Below, piece by piece: positions 1,164-15,175 of a DNA stretch of 25,396 nucleotides (positions are counted from its first letter, which is position 1; each line of letters opens with the position of its first letter). The notes beneath the pieces are model-generated. The model had not been told where the DNA came from and made no database searches. It worked only from the letters and a program-made list of their open reading frames with translations. The DNA comes from an uncultured Bacteroidota bacterium (GTDB taxonomy: Bacteria > CLD3 > SB21), in assembly GCA_964535295.1 (NCBI GenBank), contig CAZHUW010000004.1:1-25396 (forward strand). Direction: 5' to 3'. A program made the translations under genes and the position numbers.

Positions 1164-2975
1164 ATGCAGGAAGATGAGGTCATGGGTAAAGCTTACGATG
1201 GACGCCTGATGCGGCGTTTGTTGAAGTTTGCCCTGCCTTATAAATATATGTTACTAGGCTCTATCCTGCTACTGATCGCGGCACAAGCTTTCAGCGCCTA
1301 CCGGCCCAAGATCATCCAGGAAGCCATCGACAACGCAATTGTTACGGGTGACCTGAACCGATTGCATCTCTATGCTTTGTATTTTGTGGGTCTGCTGATC
1401 GGCGAATTCATTCTACAATACAGTGTGATCTATCTTACTCAACTGATGGGGCAGAGGATCATATTCGATCTGCGAATGAAATTGTATGCACATTTGGAAG
1501 GGCTGCATCTGCAATTTTTCGACCGTAATCCAGTTGGACGCCTTATCACGCGTGTCACTTCGGATATCGAGTCGCTGAATGAGATGTTTACATCGGGGCT
1601 CGTGTACCTTTTCGGCGATCTTTTTCTACTGTTAGGCATCATCGTATTCATGTTTACGCTCAGCACAAAACTTACAATAGTCACGCTCATCGTCCTTCCT
1701 TTTATTTTCTACATCTCCGTAGTATTTAAAACAAAAGTCAGGGTCAGCTACCGGGAAGTTCGCCTCAAGATATCGGCGCTCAATTCATACATTCAGGAAA
1801 ACATCACCGGCGTGAGTACCGTTCAGATCTTCAACAGAGAAAAGAAGAATTTTGGACGATTTGACGAACTGAACCAAAGCCTCACCCGGTCGCACGTGGA
1901 TTCCATATTCCATTATGCCTGGTTCTATCCGGCAATCAATTTTGCCAGTTCATCAGCCATCGGTCTGCTTTTGTGGTACGGCGGCGGTGAGATCGTGAGT
2001 CAAAACATCACAAAAGGCGAATTGATCGCTTTCATTTTTTACGCGCAATTGTTTTTCAGGCCGATACAGGATCTGAGCGACAAGTATAATATACTCCAGA
2101 CGGCTATGGCGTCGTCCGAGCGCGTTTTCAAATTGATCGATACGCCGAGCCAGATCGTCAATGAAGGCCAACCGGAAGTCTTAGGCGAACTCAACGGCCG
2201 GATCGAATTCAAAAGTGTATATTTTGCATACGATACAAAGCATGTAAAATCCGAGTCGGATTATATACTCAAAGATGTGAGTTTTATTGTCGAACCGGGA
2301 CAGAGTATTGCGCTGGTAGGTGCGACCGGGGCGGGAAAAAGTACCATTATCAATTTAGTTTCCAGGTTCTATGACATTAACCAGGGGCAAATACTGATTG
2401 ATGGAAAAGATATCCGAAAACTGGAAGAACTCGAGCTTCGCAGGAACATTGCAGTCGTTCTCCAGGATGTGTTTCTGTTCTCGGGGAACATCCTGGATAA
2501 TATCCGTCTGGGGCGAACGGATATTTCTCGTGAACAGGTTATTGCGGCGTCCAGAATGGTCGGTGCGGATTCTTTTATAACGGCACTTCCTGGCGGTTAT
2601 GATGAGCCGGTCCAGGAAAGAGGTAGTACCTTATCCGTTGGTCAACGGCAGTTGATCTCTCTGGCCCGCGCACTGGTGATCGATCCCAAAATTCTGGTTT
2701 TGGATGAAGCTACGTCCAGTATTGATACCGAAACGGAGCAACTGATTCAAGCCGCTATTGGTAAATTGATGGCGGGACGGACATCCATTATCATTGCCCA
2801 CCGGCTTTCCACAATACGGCACGTGGATCAGATTATGGTAATGCATAAAGGCCGGATTCGCGAACGGGGGACGCATGAGGAATTATTGGCACAAGGGGGG
2901 ATCTATTACAAATTATATCAACTTCAATATAAGGACCAGGAAATTCCAATTCGCACACAAGGCGTCAGCCTGTAA
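1164..2975 (+). CDS. Fused ABC exporter (6-TM permease plus ATPase), MsbA/lipid-A-exporter-like
   Basis: Hydrophobic N-terminal half. Walker A GATGAGKST, ABC signature LSVGQRQ, Walker B ILVLDEATS and H-loop IAHRLST are all present. The start lies 2 nt after the M16 peptidase stop. Confidence 0.9.
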   Translation: MQEDEVMGKAYDGRLMRRLLKFALPYKYMLLGSILLLIAAQAFSAYRPKIIQEAIDNAIVTGDLNRLHLYALYFVGLLIGEFILQYSVIYLTQLMGQRIIFDLRMKLYAHLEGLHLQFFDRNPVGRLITRVTSDIESLNEMFTSGLVYLFGDLFLLLGIIVFMFTLSTKLTIVTLIVLPFIFYISVVFKTKVRVSYREVRLKISALNSYIQENITGVSTVQIFNREKKNFGRFDELNQSLTRSHVDSIFHYAWFYPAINFASSSAIGLLLWYGGGEIVSQNITKGELIAFIFYAQLFFRPIQDLSDKYNILQTAMASSERVFKLIDTPSQIVNEGQPEVLGELNGRIEFKSVYFAYDTKHVKSESDYILKDVSFIVEPGQSIALVGATGAGKSTIINLVSRFYDINQGQILIDGKDIRKLEELELRRNIAVVLQDVFLFSGNILDNIRLGRTDISREQVIAASRMVGADSFITALPGGYDEPVQERGSTLSVGQRQLISLARALVIDPKILVLDEATSSIDTETEQLIQAAIGKLMAGRTSIIIAHRLSTIRHVDQIMVMHKGRIRERGTHEELLAQGGIYYKLYQLQYKDQEIPIRTQGVSL

Positions 2976-4503
2976 CACGCTCTGGAACGTTTTCCGAAAG
3001 AGTTTGTTGATCTGCGGGCTGGTAACATGGTAGGGAGAATGAAAATAAAGAACCTTTTCCTAATTCACTTTCGACATTAATCTTCCCCTCATGCTGCTGA
3101 ATGATCTCTTTTACAAAAGCCAGTCCTAATCCCGTCCCTTCAATATCTTTTAAATTCTTGTCTTCTTTTGCCCTGAAGAACTTCTGAAAGAGATAATTCA
3201 TGTTTTCTTTTGAAATACCGAAACCGGTATCGCGTACCTCAACGAGTACCGATTTCTTTTGGCTTTTAACCGTGATTGAGATCTCGGAATTTTCAGGGCT
3301 GTATTTGACCGCGTTGGAGAACAAATTCAGTGCTACCTGTCCGATCAGATCCGGGTCAACTAAAACGAGGGGAACAGATTCGAAAGACGTATGTACACGT
3401 ATGTTCCTTTTGTATGCCAAATGGGAGTTGACGGTGAGCATATTGGAAATAACGGTTACTATGTCCACGGGTATCTTTGTTAGCGGGGTTTGTCCGCTTT
3501 CGATGCGGCTGATATCAAGGAATTTATTGATTAGATCGGCCAGCCTCCCCGATTCGTAATGAATGATGTCGACGTATTCTTTTTTTGTGGCGGCCGGCAA
3601 TTCAGGGTCTTTCAAAATCTCGCTGAAACCGGCAATGGAAGTGAGCGGCGATCGCAGTTCATGCGCAACGACATGAACCAGTTCGGTTTTTAACTTATCC
3701 ACTTCCTTTTCTTTGGTGATATTGCGCAAAACGATCACGATGGCGATCAAATCAAAATTATCCATGACCTTTGACGCATGCGCAGCCAAAACGATATTCG
3801 CAGCGCCATGATCGGGATGTATCTCGACCTCCTCTTTGAAGATCTCGTTGGAATTACTTTGTTTGGTCTTGGCGGTCAAAAATTTAAGTTCCGGAAAGAA
3901 GAAGGAAAGGGAACAGCCGTGCACATCCTTTTCCTTGATATTGAACCAGTCTTCAATAACGTCATTAAGCAACAGGATCTCATCCAGTTCGCTGACCACG
4001 ATCACGCCGTCGGCAATATTCCTGAGAATCGCCTCGGTTTTTATCTTCTCACGAATGATTTCATTGATATTGATCTGGTATATACGTTTCAGTTCGAGCG
4101 TCATATAGTTAAATATGCGCGACAATTGAATGATCTCTTCGCTGCTCTGCACATTGACCTTGTGATCAAAATTACCACGCGCGATCTCTTTGGCGCTTTC
4201 GATGAACTGACGTATCGGCGTGGCGATCTCTTGTGCCGTAAACTTGGCGGTGAGATAGGAAAAGATCAGGGCAAAACAGACGGGAATCACCAGTATCCAA
4301 AACAAACGGTATGGGAGATCCTGGAGATCCATCCAGCGCATGATCAGTTCAATAACACCTAAGGTGGCGAGCATAACGGGAAAAATGATCGCAAAAATGC
4401 GGTTGAAAACACTGGACCTCCGCATTTTCCCGCGAACTTTTTTAAACGGATTAGGCATGTATAACCGTACAAAAAATACCCCGGTAAATCCGAGGTCATT
4501 CAT
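2965..4503 (-). CDS. Membrane-anchored sensor histidine kinase (2 TM, HAMP, PAS-like, HisKA, HATPase_c). No cognate response regulator is in the window.
   Basis: H-box HELRSPLTSI, N-box LFSNAVKYS, G1 DTGFGI and G2 GTGLGLAFV are present. There are two N-terminal hydrophobic helices with almost no periplasmic loop, then a HAMP-like segment. The start ATG is revcomp of 4501-4503 and overlaps the stop of the upstream 74-aa ORF (TAATG). Confidence 0.9.
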   Translation of the reverse strand: MNDLGFTGVFFVRLYMPNPFKKVRGKMRRSSVFNRIFAIIFPVMLATLGVIELIMRWMDLQDLPYRLFWILVIPVCFALIFSYLTAKFTAQEIATPIRQFIESAKEIARGNFDHKVNVQSSEEIIQLSRIFNYMTLELKRIYQININEIIREKIKTEAILRNIADGVIVVSELDEILLLNDVIEDWFNIKEKDVHGCSLSFFFPELKFLTAKTKQSNSNEIFKEEVEIHPDHGAANIVLAAHASKVMDNFDLIAIVIVLRNITKEKEVDKLKTELVHVVAHELRSPLTSIAGFSEILKDPELPAATKKEYVDIIHYESGRLADLINKFLDISRIESGQTPLTKIPVDIVTVISNMLTVNSHLAYKRNIRVHTSFESVPLVLVDPDLIGQVALNLFSNAVKYSPENSEISITVKSQKKSVLVEVRDTGFGISKENMNYLFQKFFRAKEDKNLKDIEGTGLGLAFVKEIIQQHEGKINVESELGKGSLFSFSLPCYQPADQQTLSENVPERVTG

Positions 4504-4727
4504 TATTCTTTGAATATTTTTTCTAGTTCCGTGATTAGTTCGTCCCGGTTGGCTTTGGATATTTCACGGCCTTTTAGAGGGAAGTTTGGAATCGTTCGGG
4601 CGAGTTTCCGTAAATTTATGACATTGAAGGAGTGATAATCCTCGTCAGGTTTGGTTAATTTCTTTTTCTTGAGTATAGATTCGTCTTTTTGAACCGATCG
4701 AAATAGCTCCTGTTGAGCTAAGGTCAT
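4503..4727 (-). CDS. Hypothetical 74-aa Lys/Glu-rich protein with no recognisable domain. It is translationally coupled on both sides (BMC-H upstream, histidine kinase downstream).
   Basis: ORF with ATG (revcomp of 4725-4727) overlapping the BMC-H stop as TAATG. Its own stop overlaps the kinase ATG as TAATG. No motif recognised. Confidence 0.5.
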   Translation of the reverse strand: MTLAQQELFRSVQKDESILKKKKLTKPDEDYHSFNVINLRKLARTIPNFPLKGREISKANRDELITELEKIFKE

Positions 4728-5056
4728 TAATTCAGTTTTTTTTTTACGCCGCTACTGTTTTCATAGGGCATTGGCGGGGGCGCGTCTTCATAAACGATTG
4801 ACTCGGTCATTTCATCGGGCCTTGGGATGATATGTACCGAAACGACCTGTCCCACACGCCTTGCTGCTGCTTCACCTGCGGCAACGGAAGCCTGGACGGC
4901 GCCGACTTCACCAACCACTTTGATCGTAACCATGGCTCCGTCTGTAAGTTCTTTGCCGATCAACTTGACATTGGACGCCTTTATCATCGCATCGGCAGCT
5001 TCGATTGCGCCAACAAGACCGAGCGTTTCTACCATTCCTAATGCACGTTCTTCCAT
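4727..5056 (-). CDS. BMC-H shell protein (PduA/EutM/CcmK family, PF00936-type) with a ~30-aa Pro-rich C-terminal extension
   Basis: Canonical motif [26 protein letters not shown]...VHIIPRP. ATG at revcomp 5054-5056 is preceded by an AAGGAAA ribosome-binding site. C-terminal tail ...YEDAPPPMPYENSSGVKKKLN. Confidence 0.9.
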   Translation of the reverse strand: MEERALGMVETLGLVGAIEAADAMIKASNVKLIGKELTDGAMVTIKVVGEVGAVQASVAAGEAAARRVGQVVSVHIIPRPDEMTESIVYEDAPPPMPYENSSGVKKKLN

Positions 5057-5078
5057 CCGTGGCTTTCCTTAAATTAAA

Positions 5079-5360
5079 TTACGCGCCTTTTTTGGGAAGA
5101 ATAATTTCCACTTCAGGGTGCGGTCTCGGAATGACATGCACCGATACCAATTCACCCACTTTTTCAGCGGCTGCAGCACCGGCGTCCGTCGCGGCCTTCA
5201 CAGCACCGACGTCTCCGCGGACCATCACGGTTACATATCCGCCGCCAATCTTCTCTTTGCCGATCAGTTCTACTTTGGCGGCCTTTACCATGGCATCCGC
5301 CGCTTCGATTGCGCCGACCAGGCCCTTTGTTTCAACCATTCCAAGTGCATCAAGTGCCAT
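5079..5360 (-). CDS. BMC-H shell protein, very PduA-like
   Basis: [81 protein letters not shown] is near-identical in pattern to PduA/EutM. ATG at revcomp 5358-5360 sits 7 nt after a GGAGG ribosome-binding site. The ORF track's TTG at 5366 is less likely. Confidence 0.92.
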
Positions 5361-5591
5361 TGTCAATCCTCCTAAAGAAAAATTAAGTTATATGTGTTGG
5401 GTATAGAAAACGTAAGTTGAGTAAATGTTAATTTCGAAAGGTTCTTATTAACAAAAAAGGTTAATCAAATCTCCCGTGAAAGTCAATTAGATTTTTGCAA
5501 CCTTTCAAGCTATTGATTTTCACTTTCTTTTCGCACGCCAAACACATAATAGAGCGCGGCGAATTGACCCAAATATTATTCAACAATTTTC

Positions 5592-9339: not shown

Positions 9340-9903
9340 ATGTTTGATCTGAATAAACAATATCATGATACCGAAGAAAAGATGAAAAAATCCTTGGAAG
9401 CGGTTCGTCACGAATTATCCAAAGTTCGCAGCGGACGCGCAACCACCACTCTGCTGGACGGAATAAAAGTCGATTATTACGGTACTCCTACACCGCTCAA
9501 TCAGGTGGGTAATGTTTCCGCACCGGAGGCGCGCTTATTGACCGTTCAGCCTTGGGACAAAAATATGATCCAGCCGATCGAAAAAGCTATTCAGATGGCG
9601 GACCTGGGTCTCAATCCGGCCAATGACGGTACGATGATACGTATTCCGATTCCGGCCTTAAATGAAGAGCGCCGAAAAGAATTGGTGAAGCTGACCAAGA
9701 AATATGCCGAGGACGGACGAGTAGCGATCCGTAATGTACGACGCGATGCGAACGAACACATTAAGAAAGCAGAAAAGGGTCATGAGGTATCGGAAGACGA
9801 TTCGAAACAGGCGCACGACAAGATACAAAAAATGACCGATGCGTATATCAAAAAGATCGATGACATGGTCGCTATGAAAGAAAAAGAGATTATGGAAGTG
9901 TAG
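9340..9903 (+). CDS. frr: Ribosome recycling factor
   Basis: Length and pattern typical of RRF. Conserved position after pyrH. Confidence 0.93.
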   Translation: MFDLNKQYHDTEEKMKKSLEAVRHELSKVRSGRATTTLLDGIKVDYYGTPTPLNQVGNVSAPEARLLTVQPWDKNMIQPIEKAIQMADLGLNPANDGTMIRIPIPALNEERRKELVKLTKKYAEDGRVAIRNVRRDANEHIKKAEKGHEVSEDDSKQAHDKIQKMTDAYIKKIDDMVAMKEKEIMEV

Positions 9904-9933: not shown

Positions 9934-9970
9934 AAAGCCTGTAGGGGAACCGCTCTTACAGGCTTTTGCT
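9934..9970 (+). terminator. Rho-independent terminator after frr
   Basis: GCCTGTA ... TACAGGC stem followed by TTTTGCTTGT. Confidence 0.65.
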
Positions 9971-10065
9971 TGTACCGGCGAAACCGCGCCTTGACTTTAT
10001 GTTTGAATCTTTATAAGTTTGCGGCAGTGCTAGTTCACAGAGATATCCCATCTATTGTCTATCAC

Positions 10066-11820
10066 ATGATGCATCAATTATTTTCTTCGAAAAACGATCT
10101 GAAAAAAATCATTCTGATAGGCCTGTTATTCCTCCTTATTCTGCTGTCCATCATAAGTTTTTTATTTTTTAAGGGCCTTCTGATCGTGTCGTTGCCCGCG
10201 TTGGGAGTTTGTGTCATTTATCTTATTTTTGAATATTTGCAGGGGGACCGCGGACGAAAAAATCAACGAATAACGCCGTTCGGTAAAAGAAACGCTCCGA
10301 TGCCCCAGACTCCGTTGACCAATTATTTTGCGAAACAAAAAGTTCAGCCGGATGAGAAGAATGAGAACTCAATGGATATGCTTGATGATACGCAGGCGTC
10401 GGTCTTTTTTAACCAGACATCGGACGCAATCATTCAGCTTGTTCACCAGACATTTGCGGCGAATACTACATTCTTATATCTTTACAGCGAGGAAGAAAAC
10501 GAACTTGTTCTCCAAAGTTTTCGAACCGAGAGTTCTTTTTTCTCTGCCACAACCCGGAATCCTCTTTCTCAATCCGGTATGAAGCTTTTTGCGGAAGTTG
10601 TAAAGAAACGCGAAAATAAATTATTTGCAGCTCTTGGGCCAGATGAAAGAGGTCTTTTTTACTACGACCAGTATCAGGACGTACACACTTTGATGATCGT
10701 GCCGCTTTTGAGGCGTGGTACTTTACTGGGTGTGGTAGGTGTTGACCACCTTAAAGCTGAACGTTATTCGGATCATCATACTACGTTGCTTGAACAATAC
10801 GGGCATTTGCTGATACAGACGATCCAGAATATCGACGGCGTGTATGTGAAAAATAAGCTTCGCCGGATGTTCCAATCATTGAAAGAATATAATGAGATCG
10901 TAAAAACTGAAGACAGTGAAGAAGCCATATTCAAATATCTGAAAGAGGCTTTGAGTCATAATCTTGAATGGGATACTTTACTGGTTTGGATGCGGGCCGG
11001 ATCGGATATCGAATGGGTGGTAGCGGACGCAGACGGCGCAAAAATTTTGCCGATTGGAACTGCGCATTCACTTGAGGAGAGGCCGGAATGGTCTGCCATT
11101 CAAAATCAAAAAAGATCCTATCGTCCGGATACGGAAGAAAACGGGTCGAAGAAAACTCAGCTTTCCGTTCCATTCGTGGATCACGGACATTGTTTTGGGG
11201 TTTTACACCTGGCATCCGATCAAACGGATGCGTGGGATATGTATGAAGTACAATTTGTGGAGAATCTATGCCACAGCGTCAGTCTTGCATTGGCTCGGGC
11301 GCAGTTGGACAAACACTTGTTTTCCGAAATGTCGCACGATCCGCTGACGGGATTGGATAATTTACAGGCGTTCAACCGCAAGGTTGCCGCGGAGATCCAC
11401 CGTGCGAAGCGCTTTGGTACAACTTTCTCATTGTTGATTTTTTATGTTGATTATATCAGAAATATATATGAAAATTTTGGCGTATCGGCCGGTGATTTTG
11501 TAATCGAGAAAATCGCTGAAATTTTGAAAAGCAGCAAACGGCAGATCGACAGCGCCGCACGTATCAGCAACGACCAGTTCGGACTGATCGTGCTCGAAAG
11601 CAAAAGGGAAGAAGCGCGCGACTGTGCTCAACGGGTACTGCGCAATATCGAAGTCTCGGAGATCGACTTCAACGGCGAATCGATCCCGTTGTCAGCTGTT
11701 ATCGGCATCGCTACTTTCGGCGTCGACGGCGAGGACCAAGCCCAATTGATGTTGTCTGCCGACAAAGCGGTCCAGATCGCCAGAAAAATGAAGGAAATAA
11801 AAATTGGGTTTGTCAGTTGA
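10066..11820 (+). CDS. Membrane protein with 2 TM helices, tandem GAF-like domains and a C-terminal degenerate GGDEF domain (active site SNDQF, I-site RQID retained). Likely a c-di-GMP receptor-type signalling protein.
   Basis: DPLTGLDN ... RQID-SAARI-SNDQF-GLIVL aligns to the GGDEF fold, with RxxD five residues before the degenerate GG(D/E)EF position. GAF-like ...GVLHLASDQ... The start is most plausibly ATG 10066 (MMHQLF...), since the track's 9970 start lies in the frr terminator. No strong ribosome-binding site, so the start is uncertain. Confidence 0.78.
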   Translation: MMHQLFSSKNDLKKIILIGLLFLLILLSIISFLFFKGLLIVSLPALGVCVIYLIFEYLQGDRGRKNQRITPFGKRNAPMPQTPLTNYFAKQKVQPDEKNENSMDMLDDTQASVFFNQTSDAIIQLVHQTFAANTTFLYLYSEEENELVLQSFRTESSFFSATTRNPLSQSGMKLFAEVVKKRENKLFAALGPDERGLFYYDQYQDVHTLMIVPLLRRGTLLGVVGVDHLKAERYSDHHTTLLEQYGHLLIQTIQNIDGVYVKNKLRRMFQSLKEYNEIVKTEDSEEAIFKYLKEALSHNLEWDTLLVWMRAGSDIEWVVADADGAKILPIGTAHSLEERPEWSAIQNQKRSYRPDTEENGSKKTQLSVPFVDHGHCFGVLHLASDQTDAWDMYEVQFVENLCHSVSLALARAQLDKHLFSEMSHDPLTGLDNLQAFNRKVAAEIHRAKRFGTTFSLLIFYVDYIRNIYENFGVSAGDFVIEKIAEILKSSKRQIDSAARISNDQFGLIVLESKREEARDCAQRVLRNIEVSEIDFNGESIPLSAVIGIATFGVDGEDQAQLMLSADKAVQIARKMKEIKIGFVS

Positions 11821-11832
11821 TCAGGAGGAGAC

Positions 11833-12105
11833 GTGGTTCTAGGAAAAGTCATCGGGAATGTCTGGGCAACGCGAAAAGATGAAAAACTAACGGGCGTCAA
11901 ATTGATGATCGTCCGGAGCGTGGATCTGGATTATAAAGAGAAAGAAACCTTTGTGGTTGCCGCGGACTCGGTTGGTGCGGGTGTGGGGGAGATAGTACTG
12001 TATTGTACCGGGAGTTCGGCGCGGCAAACTGAGATATCACAGGACAGGCCGGTGGATGCCGTGATTATGGCCATCGTGGACAAATTAGAATTTGATAAAA
12101 AATAA
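11833..12105 (+). CDS. BMC-P vertex (pentamer) shell protein, EutN/CcmL/PduN family (PF03319-type)
   Basis: VLGKVIGNVWATRKDEKLTGVKLMIV...ADSVGAGVGEIVLYCTGSSAR...PVDAVIMAIVDKL. GTG start 12 nt after the GGDEF-like gene stop, with an AGGAGGA ribosome-binding site. Confidence 0.88.
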   Translation: MVLGKVIGNVWATRKDEKLTGVKLMIVRSVDLDYKEKETFVVAADSVGAGVGEIVLYCTGSSARQTEISQDRPVDAVIMAIVDKLEFDKK

Positions 12106-12123
12106 ATTACCGTATAACTGTTC

Positions 12124-12387
12124 ATGAACTTAGCGCGTATAATAGGTACTGTGTGGGCGACGAAAAAACACCCCAGTCTGGAGGGGTTTTCCCTAAAGAT
12201 CATACAACCGCTGACATCCGGTATGGAAAAGATCGGAAGCCCAATTGTTGCAACGGATTCAGTAGGCACAGGACAACCCGATGAGTTGGTGTATTATGTG
12301 ACCTCCGGAGAAGCACCTATTCCGCTGGATAAGAAAATGCCGACAGATGCGACGATCATCGGCATTGCAGAACGGATCGATCGCTAG
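12124..12387 (+). CDS. BMC-P vertex shell protein, second paralog
   Basis: MNLARIIGTVWATKKHPSLEGFSLKIIQPL...ATDSVGTGQPDELVYYVTSGEA...DATIIGIAERI matches the EutN/CcmL pattern. Confidence 0.85.
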   Translation: MNLARIIGTVWATKKHPSLEGFSLKIIQPLTSGMEKIGSPIVATDSVGTGQPDELVYYVTSGEAPIPLDKKMPTDATIIGIAERIDR

Positions 12388-12456
12388 TGTCGGATCCCGC
12401 AGGGTTTGTCTTGAGTAACGAAAAAAATTCTATTCATCTCATCCAAAGTGGGTTTT

Positions 12457-13299
12457 ATGAACTTTGCAGAAAAAAGCAATGATCTCATAGATAAATATCT
12501 TCAGGAGATCGGCAGTGTTCCGCTTCTGAATCCCGAAGAAGAAATTGAGCTGGCCAAGAAGGTAAAAGACGGGGACGAATTGGCTCTTGAAAAACTGACG
12601 AAAGCAAATCTGCGTTTCGTTGTCAGCGTTGCCAAACAATATCAAAACCAAGGATTGTCGCTTAACGATTTGATCAACGAAGGAAATATTGGATTGATCA
12701 AGGCGGCGAAACGGTTTGACGTAACACGCGGATTTAAATTCATTTCCTATGCCGTATGGTGGATTCGGCAATCGATCCTGCAGGCTTTGGCGGAACAATC
12801 CCGTGTAGTAAGGCTCCCGCTCAATAAGATCGGAACACTGAATAAGATCGGTAAAGTTTTCAGCGATCTCGAACAGGAATTTGAACGCGAACCGAGTTCG
12901 GATGAAATTGCCGACATGTTGGATATGTCCTCGTTTGAGGTGACAAACACTATGCAGATGTCGGGACGGCATGTATCGATGGATGAGCCGATCCACGATT
13001 CAGAAAACAACACGCTGATGGATGTGATCGAAAACGAACAGCAGGAGCCTCCCGATCAGGACCTGCTGACGGAGTCGTTGCGAATAGAAATCCAACGCGC
13101 GCTGGAAACCCTTTCGGCGCGCGAGGCCGAGGTTGTTAAATTATATTTTGGGCTTGACACGGACCATCCGCTAACCCTCGAAGAGATCGGCGAACGTTTT
13201 GACCTTACGCGTGAACGCGTGCGCCAGATCAAAGAAAAAGCTATACGCCGCCTGCGCCACGCTTCCCGCAGCAACGTGCTTCGGCATTACCTTGGCTGA
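12457..13299 (+). CDS. RNA polymerase sigma-70 family factor. It is primary-like (RpoD/SigA) but short (about 280 aa, no region 1.1 or non-conserved insertion), as in Bacteroidetes/FCB SigA.
   Basis: Region 2: [29 protein letters not shown]. Region 4.2: [33 protein letters not shown] at 12457 is preferred over the GTG at 12448. Confidence 0.88.
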
Positions 13300-13424: not shown

Positions 13425-14174
13425 ATGAATATTATTGTGTGCATGAAGCAGGTGCCGGATAGTGAGACGCGCGTCAAGGTTAATCCGGACGGCAGATCAC
13501 TGGATCTTTCGGCAGTAAATTTTGTGATCAATCCCCATGACGAATTTGCGATCGAAGAAGCGATTCGCCTGAAGGAAAAATTCGGCGGCGAAGTGACGGT
13601 TCTTACTTTAGGTCCAGAACGCGCAGAAAATGATATACGGAAAGCGCTCGCGATGGGAGCTGACAAAGCCGTCTTGCTCAAAACGGACGCCGGTTTTAAC
13701 GGCGATGTTGCGCTAGCCCTTTCGGAACAGATCAAATCAATGTCGCACGATCTTGTTCTCTTCGGGAAACAGGCTATCGACGAGGACAGCTCGCAGATGC
13801 CGCAAATGGTGGCCGAAATGCTCGATCTTCCCTGTGTTACCGTGGTAGTTAAACTGGACGTGAATCCGGAGTCTAAGAGCGGCACTGCCGAACGTGAGAT
13901 CGAGGGCGGAAAAGAGATCGTCGAATTTTCATTACCGGCGGTCATTGGAACTCAAAAAGGGCTTAATGAACCTAGATTACCGAACTTAAAAGGTATTATG
14001 GCGGCAAAGAAAAAACCTCTCGAGAAGAAAGATCCGATTGGTACTACTGCGATGACAGAAGTGGTTGGATTGGAATTACCCCCGCCAAGGCCGGCCGGAA
14101 AGATCGTGGGAAAAGGCACCGAAGCGGTTCCCGAATTGCTTCGTTTACTTCACGAAGAAGCCAAAGTCATTTAA
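13425..14174 (+). CDS. etfB: Electron transfer flavoprotein beta subunit
   Basis: N-terminus MNIIVCMKQVPD is typical of EtfB. AGGAG ribosome-binding site. Confidence 0.92.
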   Translation: MNIIVCMKQVPDSETRVKVNPDGRSLDLSAVNFVINPHDEFAIEEAIRLKEKFGGEVTVLTLGPERAENDIRKALAMGADKAVLLKTDAGFNGDVALALSEQIKSMSHDLVLFGKQAIDEDSSQMPQMVAEMLDLPCVTVVVKLDVNPESKSGTAEREIEGGKEIVEFSLPAVIGTQKGLNEPRLPNLKGIMAAKKKPLEKKDPIGTTAMTEVVGLELPPPRPAGKIVGKGTEAVPELLRLLHEEAKVI

Positions 14175-14206
14175 GTTCGAGTCATAAAAATATTTGGAGA
14201 TATTAT

Positions 14207-15175
14207 ATGTCAATATTAGCATTTGCAGAACAACGCAACGGCGCCTTTCGTAAATCAGGATTTGAAGTAGCCAGCGAAGCCAAAAGGCTTGCGGATAAGC
14301 TTGGAACAACTGTTTCAGCACTTGTTGTTGGTTCCGGCGTAGAAAAAATAGCATCGGAGTTAGGGAAATACGGTATTTCAAAAGTATATGTTATCGATGA
14401 TGCCGGGCTTGAAAAATATTCCACGGAAGGATATACGCAGGCAATCGAAGAAACGGTGAAAAAGGCATCCGCCAGCATCGTTTTATTGCCCGCATCATCA
14501 ATGGGAAGAGATCTTGCTCCGCGTATTGCCGGAAGGCTTAAAGCGGGGTTGGCCAGCGACGTGACCCATTTCGACATTGATAATGGAAAACTCGTTATTA
14601 CGCGTCCGATTATGGCCGGAAAAGTGTTTCAGAAATTGGTCATCAAAACAGCCTGTCAGGTCATTAGCTTGCGCCCCAATGTATTTCGTCCCCAGGAGAG
14701 TGCTGTTCAGGCCGCCGTTGAAAAACTTTCTGTTTCGATCAAACCTTCGCGTGTAAAAGTCAAAGAGATGGTGGTCGAATCCGGTAAAAGAATCGAATTG
14801 ACTGAAGCCGATATCATTGTTTCCGGCGGGCGTGGATTAAAAGCCCCTGAAAACTGGGAAATGATTGTCAAACTGTCAGAAGCTTTGGGTGCGGCACACG
14901 GCGCCTCGCGTGCGGTTGTAGATGCCGGATGGCGCTCGCATGAGGAACAGGTGGGCCAAACGGGCAAAACAGTCAGTCCTCAACTGTACATTGCGGTCGG
15001 CATTTCCGGTGCGATCCAGCATTTGGCCGGTATGTCCAGTTCAAAGTACATCGTGGCCATTAATAGCGATGCTGAAGCGCCGATCTTTAAAATATCCGAT
15101 TATGGCATTGTCGGAGACCTGTTCGAAATTCTTCCGGAATTGACGAAACAGGTGACTCAAATGAAAGGTAAATAA
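14207..15175 (+). CDS. etfA: Electron transfer flavoprotein alpha subunit
   Basis: C-terminal FAD-binding signature [19 protein letters not shown]. It follows etfB after a 32-nt gap. Confidence 0.92.

Follow-up and report, generated by a model that had tools for sequence, protein, structure and literature searches.

Does a contig on which two shell-protein genes of a bacterial microcompartment (BMC) are followed by a small open reading frame (ORF) and a sensor histidine kinase encode four coupled proteins, or is one of its genes read in two frames? The question is raised by a stretch of 25,396 nucleotides (nt), hereafter the window, which represents positions 1 to 25,396 of contig CAZHUW010000004.1 in assembly GCA_964535295.1, from an uncultured Bacteroidota bacterium (GTDB lineage CLD3; SB21). 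The window encodes two hexamer-forming shell proteins, BMC-H1 and BMC-H2, a product of 74 amino acids (aa), and a 512-aa kinase, all on the minus strand. A first-pass annotation described these as four separate cistrons joined by TAATG stop/start overlaps, with translational coupling, fixed stoichiometry, and the kinase as a partner of the shell. The four same-strand ORFs, their coordinates, and their adjacency were confirmed here (Table 1; window coordinates are used throughout), but comparison with related genomes suggests a different organization. We consider it likely that the two shell genes form a unit that ends at a terminator, that the 74-aa sequence is the C-terminal domain (CTD) of BMC-H2 and would be reached by recoding at a run of ten adenines (A10), and that the kinase is encoded by a separate gene.

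Homologs join the 74-aa sequence to BMC-H2

The 74-aa ORF had been presented as a separate gene of unknown function. It has no matches in Pfam or NCBIfam, and a word-indexed homolog search with this ORF alone identified just three near-identical proteins. One of these, P0003, has the BMC-H2 linker at its N-terminus (MTESIVYED...) and continues in frame into the 74-aa sequence. A virtual -1 fusion of the two frames has full-length natural homologs, namely P0004 (184 aa), which is 89% identical at 100% coverage, P0005, and P0006. In Ignavibacteria, Melioribacteraceae, and other bacteria, more than 80 further proteins of 150-280 aa were found that consist of a BMC-H domain, a linker, and the CTD. 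A profile search with the 74-aa ORF matched 372 protein clusters, and those listed mostly align within about ten residues of the C-terminus. A BMC domain was present in 105 of the 146 profile-matched proteins examined, the remainder being mostly fragments. One protein of 5143 aa (P0124) was matched by the profile along 17 stretches (E 1e-17). The best stretch covers profile positions 21-51, including the Lys-rich linker, and the match of this protein probably represents low-complexity or repeat similarity.

To these proteins can be added 80 outgroup loci, obtained in a metagenome scan for the CTD with an alignment of seven sequences as the query and with fusion judged by frame comparison. The CTD is in frame with a BMC domain in 68 of them, and only one locus (L099) has a split CTD. 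No BMC domain was detected upstream of the CTD match in the other 11, about eight of which are located on contigs that are cut at the 5' end. An ortholog of BMC-H1 is placed directly upstream of BMC-H2 in the outgroup loci and is 87-93% identical in most of them. These homologs indicate that the 74-aa ORF is the CTD of BMC-H2 and no independent gene, and that the ancestral form of BMC-H2 is a BMC domain followed by a flexible linker and a small CTD resembling the SAP and Rho_N domains.

An uninterrupted run of adenines separates the two frames

The zero frame of BMC-H2 in the window ends in GGC GTA AAA AAA AAA CTG AAT TAA, which contains the heptamer A AAA AAA, and the CTD follows in the -1 frame behind the A10 run. 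The zero-frame stop is placed two codons past the run in the window and two to four codons past it in every lineage compared. Lineages were counted at the species level with the window itself as one, and L006 was left out because it has a run of N at the junction. In eight lineages the run is A10 and the CTD lies in the -1 frame (the window, L005, L007, L045, L129, L133, L137, and L139), and in four the run has eleven adenines (A11) and the CTD is in frame (L044, L126, L127, and L128). The tract is uninterrupted in all 12 lineages, and its length is kept even though it begins at codon phase 2 or 0 depending on the lineage. No homopolymer in the window is longer, and no other run of at least 9 nt is located inside a gene there. 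All 36 Lys codons of the tract are AAA, whereas the KKKK stretch inside the CTD includes AAG in each of the 12 lineages and the longest other run of adenines within the CTD is at most six.

Gene calls of a short BMC-H2, 106-117 aa in length, make up about 29 protein clusters in the clade, and some of these are represented on 13-16 independent contigs. Identical short proteins are encoded on as many as 16 independent contigs that differ in sample and assembler, and A10 is therefore real and no sequencing error. The A11 contigs show only 77-84% DNA identity each to the nearest A10 lineage, which suggests that the two states alternate between species.

The CTD is under strong purifying selection. 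Its 72-74 codons are intact in the 12 lineages, with no stops and no internal indels, and the only difference in length is two codons at the C-terminal end in two lineages. The nonsynonymous divergence (dN) is 0.05-0.38 and the synonymous divergence (dS) is saturated, and the low dN combined with the saturated dS and the intact frame argues that the CTD is translated. However, an ATG codon for the 74-aa ORF is present in only two of the eight A10 lineages, the window and L045. The other six have no ATG, GTG, or TTG from which the CTD could start, and the codons found at the position of the window ATG are ATT, GTC, ACG, CTG, and CTG. No Shine-Dalgarno sequence precedes the 74-aa ORF. Termination followed by reinitiation at near-cognate codons was also considered and was ruled out, as L007 has GTC and the position simply varies between Met, Ile, Val, Thr, and Leu. 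Gene callers mostly annotate the short form in the A10 lineages and leave a "gap" of 230-330 nt at the CTD.

Two further observations concern runs outside the clade of the window. In the split outgroup locus, the distant L099 (7290-7965), the BMC domain shares just about 66% identity with BMC-H1 of the window, and the CTD is in the -1 frame. The junction reads CGA AAA AAA CTC, seven adenines that form a perfect A AAA AAA heptamer, with a zero-frame stop six codons later, and the split could be either an independent second case of recoding or an error in a single contig. In-frame runs of eight to ten adenines are present in the parts of several fused outgroup BMC-H genes that encode the Lys-rich linkers (L056/L059 at about 9844-9868, L074 at 9689, L078 at 1251, and L089 at 542), and slippage-prone tracts may be a general trait of the BMC-H2 linker beyond the clade of the window.

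Table 1. Features of the shell unit, the kinase gene, and the second shell gene pair, in window coordinates
Feature	Position	Strand	Description
Promoter-like element	5458..5486	-	-35 TTGACT 5486-5481, 17-nt spacer, -10 TAACCT 5463-5458; preceded by an A-rich stretch
Shine-Dalgarno sequence of BMC-H1	5373-5368	-	AGGAGG
BMC-H1	5079..5360	-	93 aa; standard PduA/EutM-like hexamer protein; PF00936 E 4.4e-30
BMC-H2, zero frame	4727..5056	-	109 aa; BMC domain and linker of about 25 residues; PF00936 E 1.3e-24
A10 tract (T10 on the plus strand)	4736..4745	-	proposed slippage/frameshift site
-1 frame ORF, C-terminal part of BMC-H2	4503..4751	-	short helix, KKKK linker, predicted SAP/Rho_N-like helix-extension-helix domain
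Predicted fusion product	5056-4736 joined to 4736-4503	-	184 aa; junction peptide ...SSGVKKKTELMTLAQQ...
74-aa ORF	4727-4503	-	no Pfam or NCBIfam match
Intrinsic terminator	4468..4496	-	stem-loop 4496-4478, then T run; directly after the CTD stop; from terminator scan
Kinase ORF as listed	4503-2965	-	512 aa; HAMP, PAS, HisKA, HATPase_c
Sensor histidine kinase	2965..4458	-	497 aa; two transmembrane segments, HAMP, PAS, HisKA, HATPase_c; H, N, G1, F, G2 boxes
BMC-P pair (EutN/CcmL pentamers)	11833-12105, 12124-12387	+	PF03319 E 2e-31, 5.6e-22

Proposed recoding mechanism

The properties of the run are those of a slippery site in that A10 or A11 is kept in 12 lineages in which synonymous sites elsewhere are saturated, and A AAA AAA is a zero-frame heptamer. 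The CTD likewise has the properties of an alternative-frame ORF, being under purifying selection and without a canonical start in six of the eight A10 lineages, with a zero-frame stop nearby. We propose, at somewhat better than even confidence, that the A10/A11 run acts as a site of programmed recoding and sets the ratio of plain to SAP-tagged subunits of one shell hexamer in an enzyme-less microcompartment of the fragmented (FRAG) type, and that the DNA toggles between the in-frame and the -1 state without the run ever being broken. Standard decoding of an A10 gene would give the 109-aa BMC-H2. The addition of one A by the RNA polymerase during transcription of the run would join the two frames, as would, alternatively, a -1 slip of the ribosome on A AAA AAA, and either slip would yield the 184-aa fusion of BMC-H2 and the CTD. 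Plain and CTD-tagged subunits of one hexamer protein would in this manner be obtained from one gene. The A10 genomes would yield mainly the short form and less of the long form, and the A11 genomes the opposite. Because both tract lengths would yield both products, the length could toggle as long as the run is not interrupted.

Of the two routes, we favor transcriptional slippage over ribosomal frameshifting, on comparative grounds. No stimulatory RNA structure was recovered 3' of the tract, where the RNAalifold consensus has a free energy of -0.5 kcal/mol and three pairs with no covariation, and the lack of a conserved structure after the tract favors length-dependent slippage over classical stimulated frameshifting. 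Such a structure is required for efficient -1 frameshifting by the ribosome but not for slippage of the polymerase. A hairpin of 6 bp in the window (UAGCUC...GAGCUA) was considered as a stimulator and rejected, as it is not conserved. The length of both A10 and A11 is equal to or above that of the RNA-DNA hybrid, and sliding of the ribosome on poly(A) may assist the transcriptional slippage.

Runs of A or T of 9 nt cause efficient slippage of the RNA polymerase, and productive use of such slippage is known from the dnaX gene of Thermus thermophilus, with a 9-nt run, and the mxiE and spa genes of Shigella (PMC5009743). The proposed case resembles these in that an intragenic A/T run of at least 9 nt would give rise to mRNAs with extra bases and two products, and it resembles mxiE in particular in that slippage would be needed for the extended product. 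It differs in that both the out-of-frame A10 and the in-frame A11 are found among sister species. Within microcompartments, the closest parallel is CsoS2 of the alpha-carboxysomes, in which -1 programmed ribosomal frameshifting at a heptamer with a 3' stem-loop generates a shorter shifted product (PMC5009743). In both cases, two isoforms of a microcompartment structural protein are, or are here proposed to be, produced from one gene by recoding. However, CsoS2 is a scaffold and not a shell protein, and in BMC-H2 the shifted product would be longer and a stimulatory structure was not found. The frameshifting in CsoS2 was the sole case of recoding in the BMC literature searched, in which no description of slippage in a BMC shell gene was found and FRAG1 is treated only in a catalogue paper.

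Fold and likely role of the CTD

The CTD contains the conserved core LNVxxLRxLARxxxNFPxxGRxISKAxRxxL. An earlier AlphaFold2 model based on four sequences was of low confidence, whereas the model based on 73 sequences has a predicted local distance difference test score (pLDDT) of about 80 over residues 31-70. The structural matches to this model are rich in helix-extension-helix domains, with root-mean-square deviations of 1.4-2.0 A, and include the Rho N-terminal domain, LEM domains, and the SAP domains of Hcc-1, MKL1, Ku70, SF3B2, PIAS1, and THO1. In Pfam, Rho_N matches six and SAP four of 24 members of the CTD family, all under the threshold. A sequence search of the PDB with the CTD profile gave nothing significant (E 0.28 for the SAP domain of Ku70). 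We describe the CTD as SAP/Rho_N-like with moderate confidence. It probably faces the cytosol, where its likely ligand is nucleic acid or a partner protein.

The hexamer protein EutK is a BMC-H protein with a C-terminal helix-turn-helix domain that binds nucleic acids. BMC-H2 is similar to EutK in being a hexamer shell protein with a small C-terminal domain that is predicted, in this case, probably to bind nucleic acids. However, the fold classes differ, with a helix-turn-helix in EutK and a predicted helix-extension-helix in BMC-H2, the two extensions show no detectable homology, and EutK is a plain fusion.

Putative promoter, terminator, and start of the kinase gene

The most strongly conserved stretch upstream of BMC-H1 contains AATTGACTTT, which is invariant in eight lineages with differing upstream genes. 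The conserved pattern is AATTGACTTTCA, a 17-nt spacer, and TAnnnT, located about 100 nt upstream of BMC-H1, and the -10 hexamer varies between TAACCT, TAAAAT, TACAAT, TAAGTT, and TAACAT across the lineages. In the window, AATTGACTTT is embedded at 5458-5500 on the minus strand in a conserved element with the sequence AAAAT(C/A)TAATTGACTTTCA...TTTG.TTAA. A scan for sigma-70 promoters missed the element, the -10 hexamer of which matches at just three of six positions. Its sequence is nevertheless suggestive of a sigma-70-type promoter with an UP-like A tract, and the element could also hold an operator. Since it is kept despite the differing upstream genes, the shell pair appears to be a self-contained unit.

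The predicted intrinsic terminator at the other end of this unit has a folding energy of -13.8 kcal/mol in the window. A hairpin and a T run are present at the same place, with differing stems, in L001, L005, L007, L044, L126, L128, L133, L137, and L139, and in the outgroup, a terminator immediately follows the CTD stop in 40 of 78 loci. The stem in the window contains a U-G pair (ACCTCGG...CCGGGGT), while L001-L004, which are otherwise identical, have a perfect stem (ACCCCGG; L001 from 6451), and this single-base polymorphism lowers the stability of the hairpin from -16.8 to -13.8 kcal/mol.

The terminator is placed where the first-pass annotation started the kinase. The first 15 codons of the 512-aa ORF, from 4503, correspond to translated terminator sequence, and the conserved start, which is followed by the pattern M-x15-S-[VI]-F-N-R-I-F, is an ATG at the equivalent of 4458 in L005, L007, and L044. 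The two TAATG strings are indeed present at 4729-4725 and 4505-4501. However, neither seems to be a real gene junction, as the first marks a frame change within what is probably one gene and the second, with the kinase starting at 4458 and the preceding 15 codons belonging to the terminator, is an artefact of ORF calling. The kinase ATG follows the terminator by just 0-25 nt, which leaves hardly any space for a separate promoter and suggests that the kinase is expressed by read-through. This would probably be at a low level, with reduced co-transcription and no coupling.

Linkage of the kinase to the shell genes

The kinase is a membrane protein with two hydrophobic stretches, separated by a loop of about 11 residues as read directly from the sequence, and the domain architecture originally described for it holds. 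In Pfam, HAMP was found, HisKA and HATPase_c score 65.7 and 93.7 bits, and PAS scores 22.1 bits, just under the cut-off of 22.6. The boxes read HELRSP, NAVKYS, DTGFGI, and GTGLGL. The scores against the named equivalogs WalK, PnpS, PhoR, and NblS are all far below the cut-offs (277.7 versus 725 for WalK). No gene with a receiver (REC) domain is present among the window ORFs, and thus no adjacent cognate response regulator, and no regulated target was found in the window.

The block of BMC-H1, BMC-H2 with its CTD, and the kinase is retained in at least 8-12 species-level lineages, in which the kinase identity is 54-83%. Its upstream neighbor is rplM or a gene for an aldo-keto reductase, hypD, a K+ transporter, or an enoyl-CoA hydratase, and its downstream neighbor is usually ABC-LytR_C and once SpoIID. 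The contig of L008 begins at the kinase, and its upstream side falls outside this comparison. In the window, the 3' ends of the kinase gene and of an ABC transporter gene on the plus strand (1164-2975) overlap convergently by 11 nt (2965-2975). The order of kinase and ABC-LytR_C genes is kept in most members of the clade. The block of shell genes and kinase proved to be conserved across five upstream contexts within the clade, but it does not extend further, as no HisKA kinase was found in the 80 CTD-bearing outgroup loci (818 kb) with a validated scan pipeline. Outside the clade, the kinase has its nearest homologs in KSB1, Calditrichota, and Zhuqueibacterota. Those next in identity to the clade members (45-49%, KSB1-like) are located in clusters of REC-GGDEF, histidine kinase, REC, hybrid histidine kinase, and NtrC genes without BMC genes. 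We infer that the linkage arose in this clade only and represents a clade-specific neighborhood. In L133, a REC-GGDEF gene and a gene for an NtrC-type response regulator are located within 8 kb of the kinase (2424-3368 and 13524-14891), and the kinase homologs in L141-L143 (45-49%) are flanked by exactly these two types of genes. The kinase may have originated in a multi-kinase cluster of this kind, with the NtrC-type regulator as a candidate for its partner.

A sensor kinase in a shell gene locus is not a new architecture, contrary to what had been claimed, as the PDU1D loci carry a kinase with a PocR domain (PMC4207490). That kinase adjoins the shell genes, as does the one described here, and its cognate response regulator and the controlled enzymes are encoded in the same loci. 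A second example of a two-component system in a BMC locus is EutW/EutV, which is comparable in all of these respects. In the clade of the window, by contrast, there is no regulator and there are no enzymes, a terminator is placed in between, and the linkage is confined to one clade.

The kinase might still be functionally tied to the microcompartment without translational coupling, which would be compatible with the explanation given above. Read-through could couple the level of the kinase to shell expression, or the kinase could sense a cue that controls the shell promoter via an unlinked response regulator. We consider such a tie possible but doubtful. The block has survived at least five rearrangements on its upstream side and two on its downstream side, the terminator is only 0-25 nt from the kinase ATG, and the terminator has been lost in L127 and L129. 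However, none of the 80 outgroup loci shows the linkage, the homologs elsewhere belong to ordinary two-component clusters, and the window has neither a response regulator nor a regulated target. Moreover, the kinase and ABC-LytR_C are syntenic in four of the five contexts examined, with L133 as the exception, and the shell pair may therefore have landed upstream of an existing kinase.

Alternatives to recoding

Several points weigh against recoding in a terminated shell unit. We deduce both the occurrence of the slippage and its mechanism from comparative sequence data alone. The bias in the Lys codons has a probability of 2e-5 when the lineages are treated as independent, which overstates its significance. 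The A11 contigs are four singletons, one of them at 1.4x coverage, and some could be assembly errors, which would not weaken the case for A10. In the window and L045, a free 74-aa protein could possibly be initiated on its own, though without a Shine-Dalgarno sequence. Finally, no terminator is present in L127 and L129, where the kinase starts 5-14 nt past the CTD stop.

The alternative that survives best is phase variation at the DNA level, by which replication slippage would switch the gene between A10 (CTD off) and A11 (CTD on) without any recoding, and the CTD would be selected only in the A11 state. Homopolymers of this length mutate fast, and both lengths exist and alternate among neighboring species. 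However, the assembled consensus is A10 in 8 of the 12 lineages, for one of which this holds in as many as 16 independent samples, and the A10 lineages have diverged to saturation at synonymous sites without acquiring a stop or a frame-disrupting indel in the CTD. In addition, slippage of the RNA polymerase would also be expected at any run of this kind, whether A10 or A11. We regard phase variation without recoding as unlikely. The two processes are not mutually exclusive, and phase variation is a live alternative, or an added layer, to recoding.

The four coupled cistrons of the first-pass annotation are very improbable, and the comparative data largely refute them. The adjacency of the same-strand ORFs is kept in the clade and both TAATG strings exist in the window, but the ATG of the 74-aa ORF is absent from six of the eight A10 lineages and is not preceded by a Shine-Dalgarno sequence, and the 74-aa sequence is fused to BMC-H nearly everywhere else. 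The kinase ATG at 4503 is inside the conserved terminator hairpin, and the relatives start their kinase at the equivalent of 4458, 5-60 nt past the CTD stop. Two of the findings that the annotation itself had named as refuting it were obtained, a terminator in front of the kinase and, in more distant relatives, shell genes without a linked kinase. Still less credible is gene decay, in which a 1-nt deletion would have truncated BMC-H2 and left a functional short protein and a 74-codon remnant, for although most lineages have gene calls for the short form only, this is already contradicted by a dN/dS far below 1 with saturated dS, the 72-74-codon ORFs that are intact in 12 lineages, the invariant residues in the CTD motif, and the tract that is never interrupted.

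A dispersed set of shell genes

Both BMC-H1 and BMC-H2 are shell proteins according to PF00936 (103.9 and 86.3 bits, cut-off 24.5), which agrees with their original description as PduA/EutM-like, and BMC-H1 scores 130.9 bits against the EutM model of NCBIfam (cut-off 133). The hexamer edge motifs, D-A-M-x-K with the interface Lys and PRPH, are represented by DAMVKAA and IPRPHPE in BMC-H1 and by DAMIKAS and IPRPDEM in BMC-H2, in which an Asp replaces the His, as it also does in the extended BMC-H proteins of the outgroup.

A pair of BMC-P genes, not mentioned in the first-pass annotation, is also present in the window, separated from the BMC-H pair by rplM, rpsI, rpsB, tsf, pyrH, frr, and a GGDEF gene. 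It is flanked by a GAF-GGDEF gene and a sigma-70 family gene, an arrangement shared with L006 and L007. In the window (9970-13299, plus strand), the pair is located 12 nt behind a gene for a transmembrane GAF-GAF-GGDEF protein and 60 nt ahead of a gene for a 283-aa RpoD/RpoS-like sigma factor. These genes look like one operon, and a position between a cyclic di-GMP cyclase and a sigma factor is an unusual setting for shell vertex genes. With BMC-P genes in the window, the BMC-H genes are not isolated shell genes, and the two pairs together are one fragmented, FRAG-type set. No metabolosome enzymes (aldehyde dehydrogenase, phosphotransacylase, or signature enzyme) were found in the window in the ORF list or with Pfam, and no Rfam family matched over the whole window.

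In the FRAG types of Sutter et al. 2021 (PMC8217296), the shell genes are dispersed among unrelated genes, without an aldehyde dehydrogenase or a signature enzyme, and the hosts of FRAG1 and FRAG3 are Ignavibacteria, Bacteroidota, Calditrichota, and their neighbors (PMC8217296, Supplementary Data 2). The window resembles these in its dispersed shell genes, with no aldehyde dehydrogenase, phosphotransacylase, or signature enzyme adjoining them, and in having one standard BMC-H and one with a C-terminal extension that holds an ordered domain, the latter here only after the two frames have been joined by the -1 shift. The joined product is homologous over its entire length to extended BMC-H proteins of Ignavibacteria and Melioribacteraceae, and the fused form of BMC-H2 and the CTD corresponds to the "BMC-H with C-terminal extension" of the FRAG types. 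The window differs in that the extension is in the -1 frame behind A10 instead of being fused, and in the histidine kinase that follows the BMC-H pair. A triplet of BMC-P genes (green, grey, and orange clades) is described for the FRAG types, and two are seen within the window; a third, if it exists, would be located beyond its limits.

Implications for the microcompartment

The locus would join extended BMC-H proteins with homopolymer recoding, each of which is already known, and the comparative evidence for this combination is strong. The new architecture originally claimed, a kinase in a shell operon, shrinks to a clade-specific neighborhood. For the annotation of microcompartments, the consequence is that shell catalogues under-count the extended BMC-H proteins, as gene callers split or drop the CTD in every A10 genome. 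If the proposed mechanism is correct, it would be the first case of recoding in the gene of a BMC shell protein and would add to the recoded microcompartment genes, of which CsoS2 is so far the only one. FRAG microcompartments occur widely among uncultured bacteria of the Fibrobacterota-Chlorobiota-Bacteroidota (FCB) group, and their shell proteins are the only distinctive parts. The putative SAP/Rho_N-like domain on the extended BMC-H and the slippery run would provide handles on what the domain binds and why both kinds of subunits are needed, and recoding at the run would offer a route to the sub-stoichiometric display of a domain that binds nucleic acid or a partner on the exterior of the shell.

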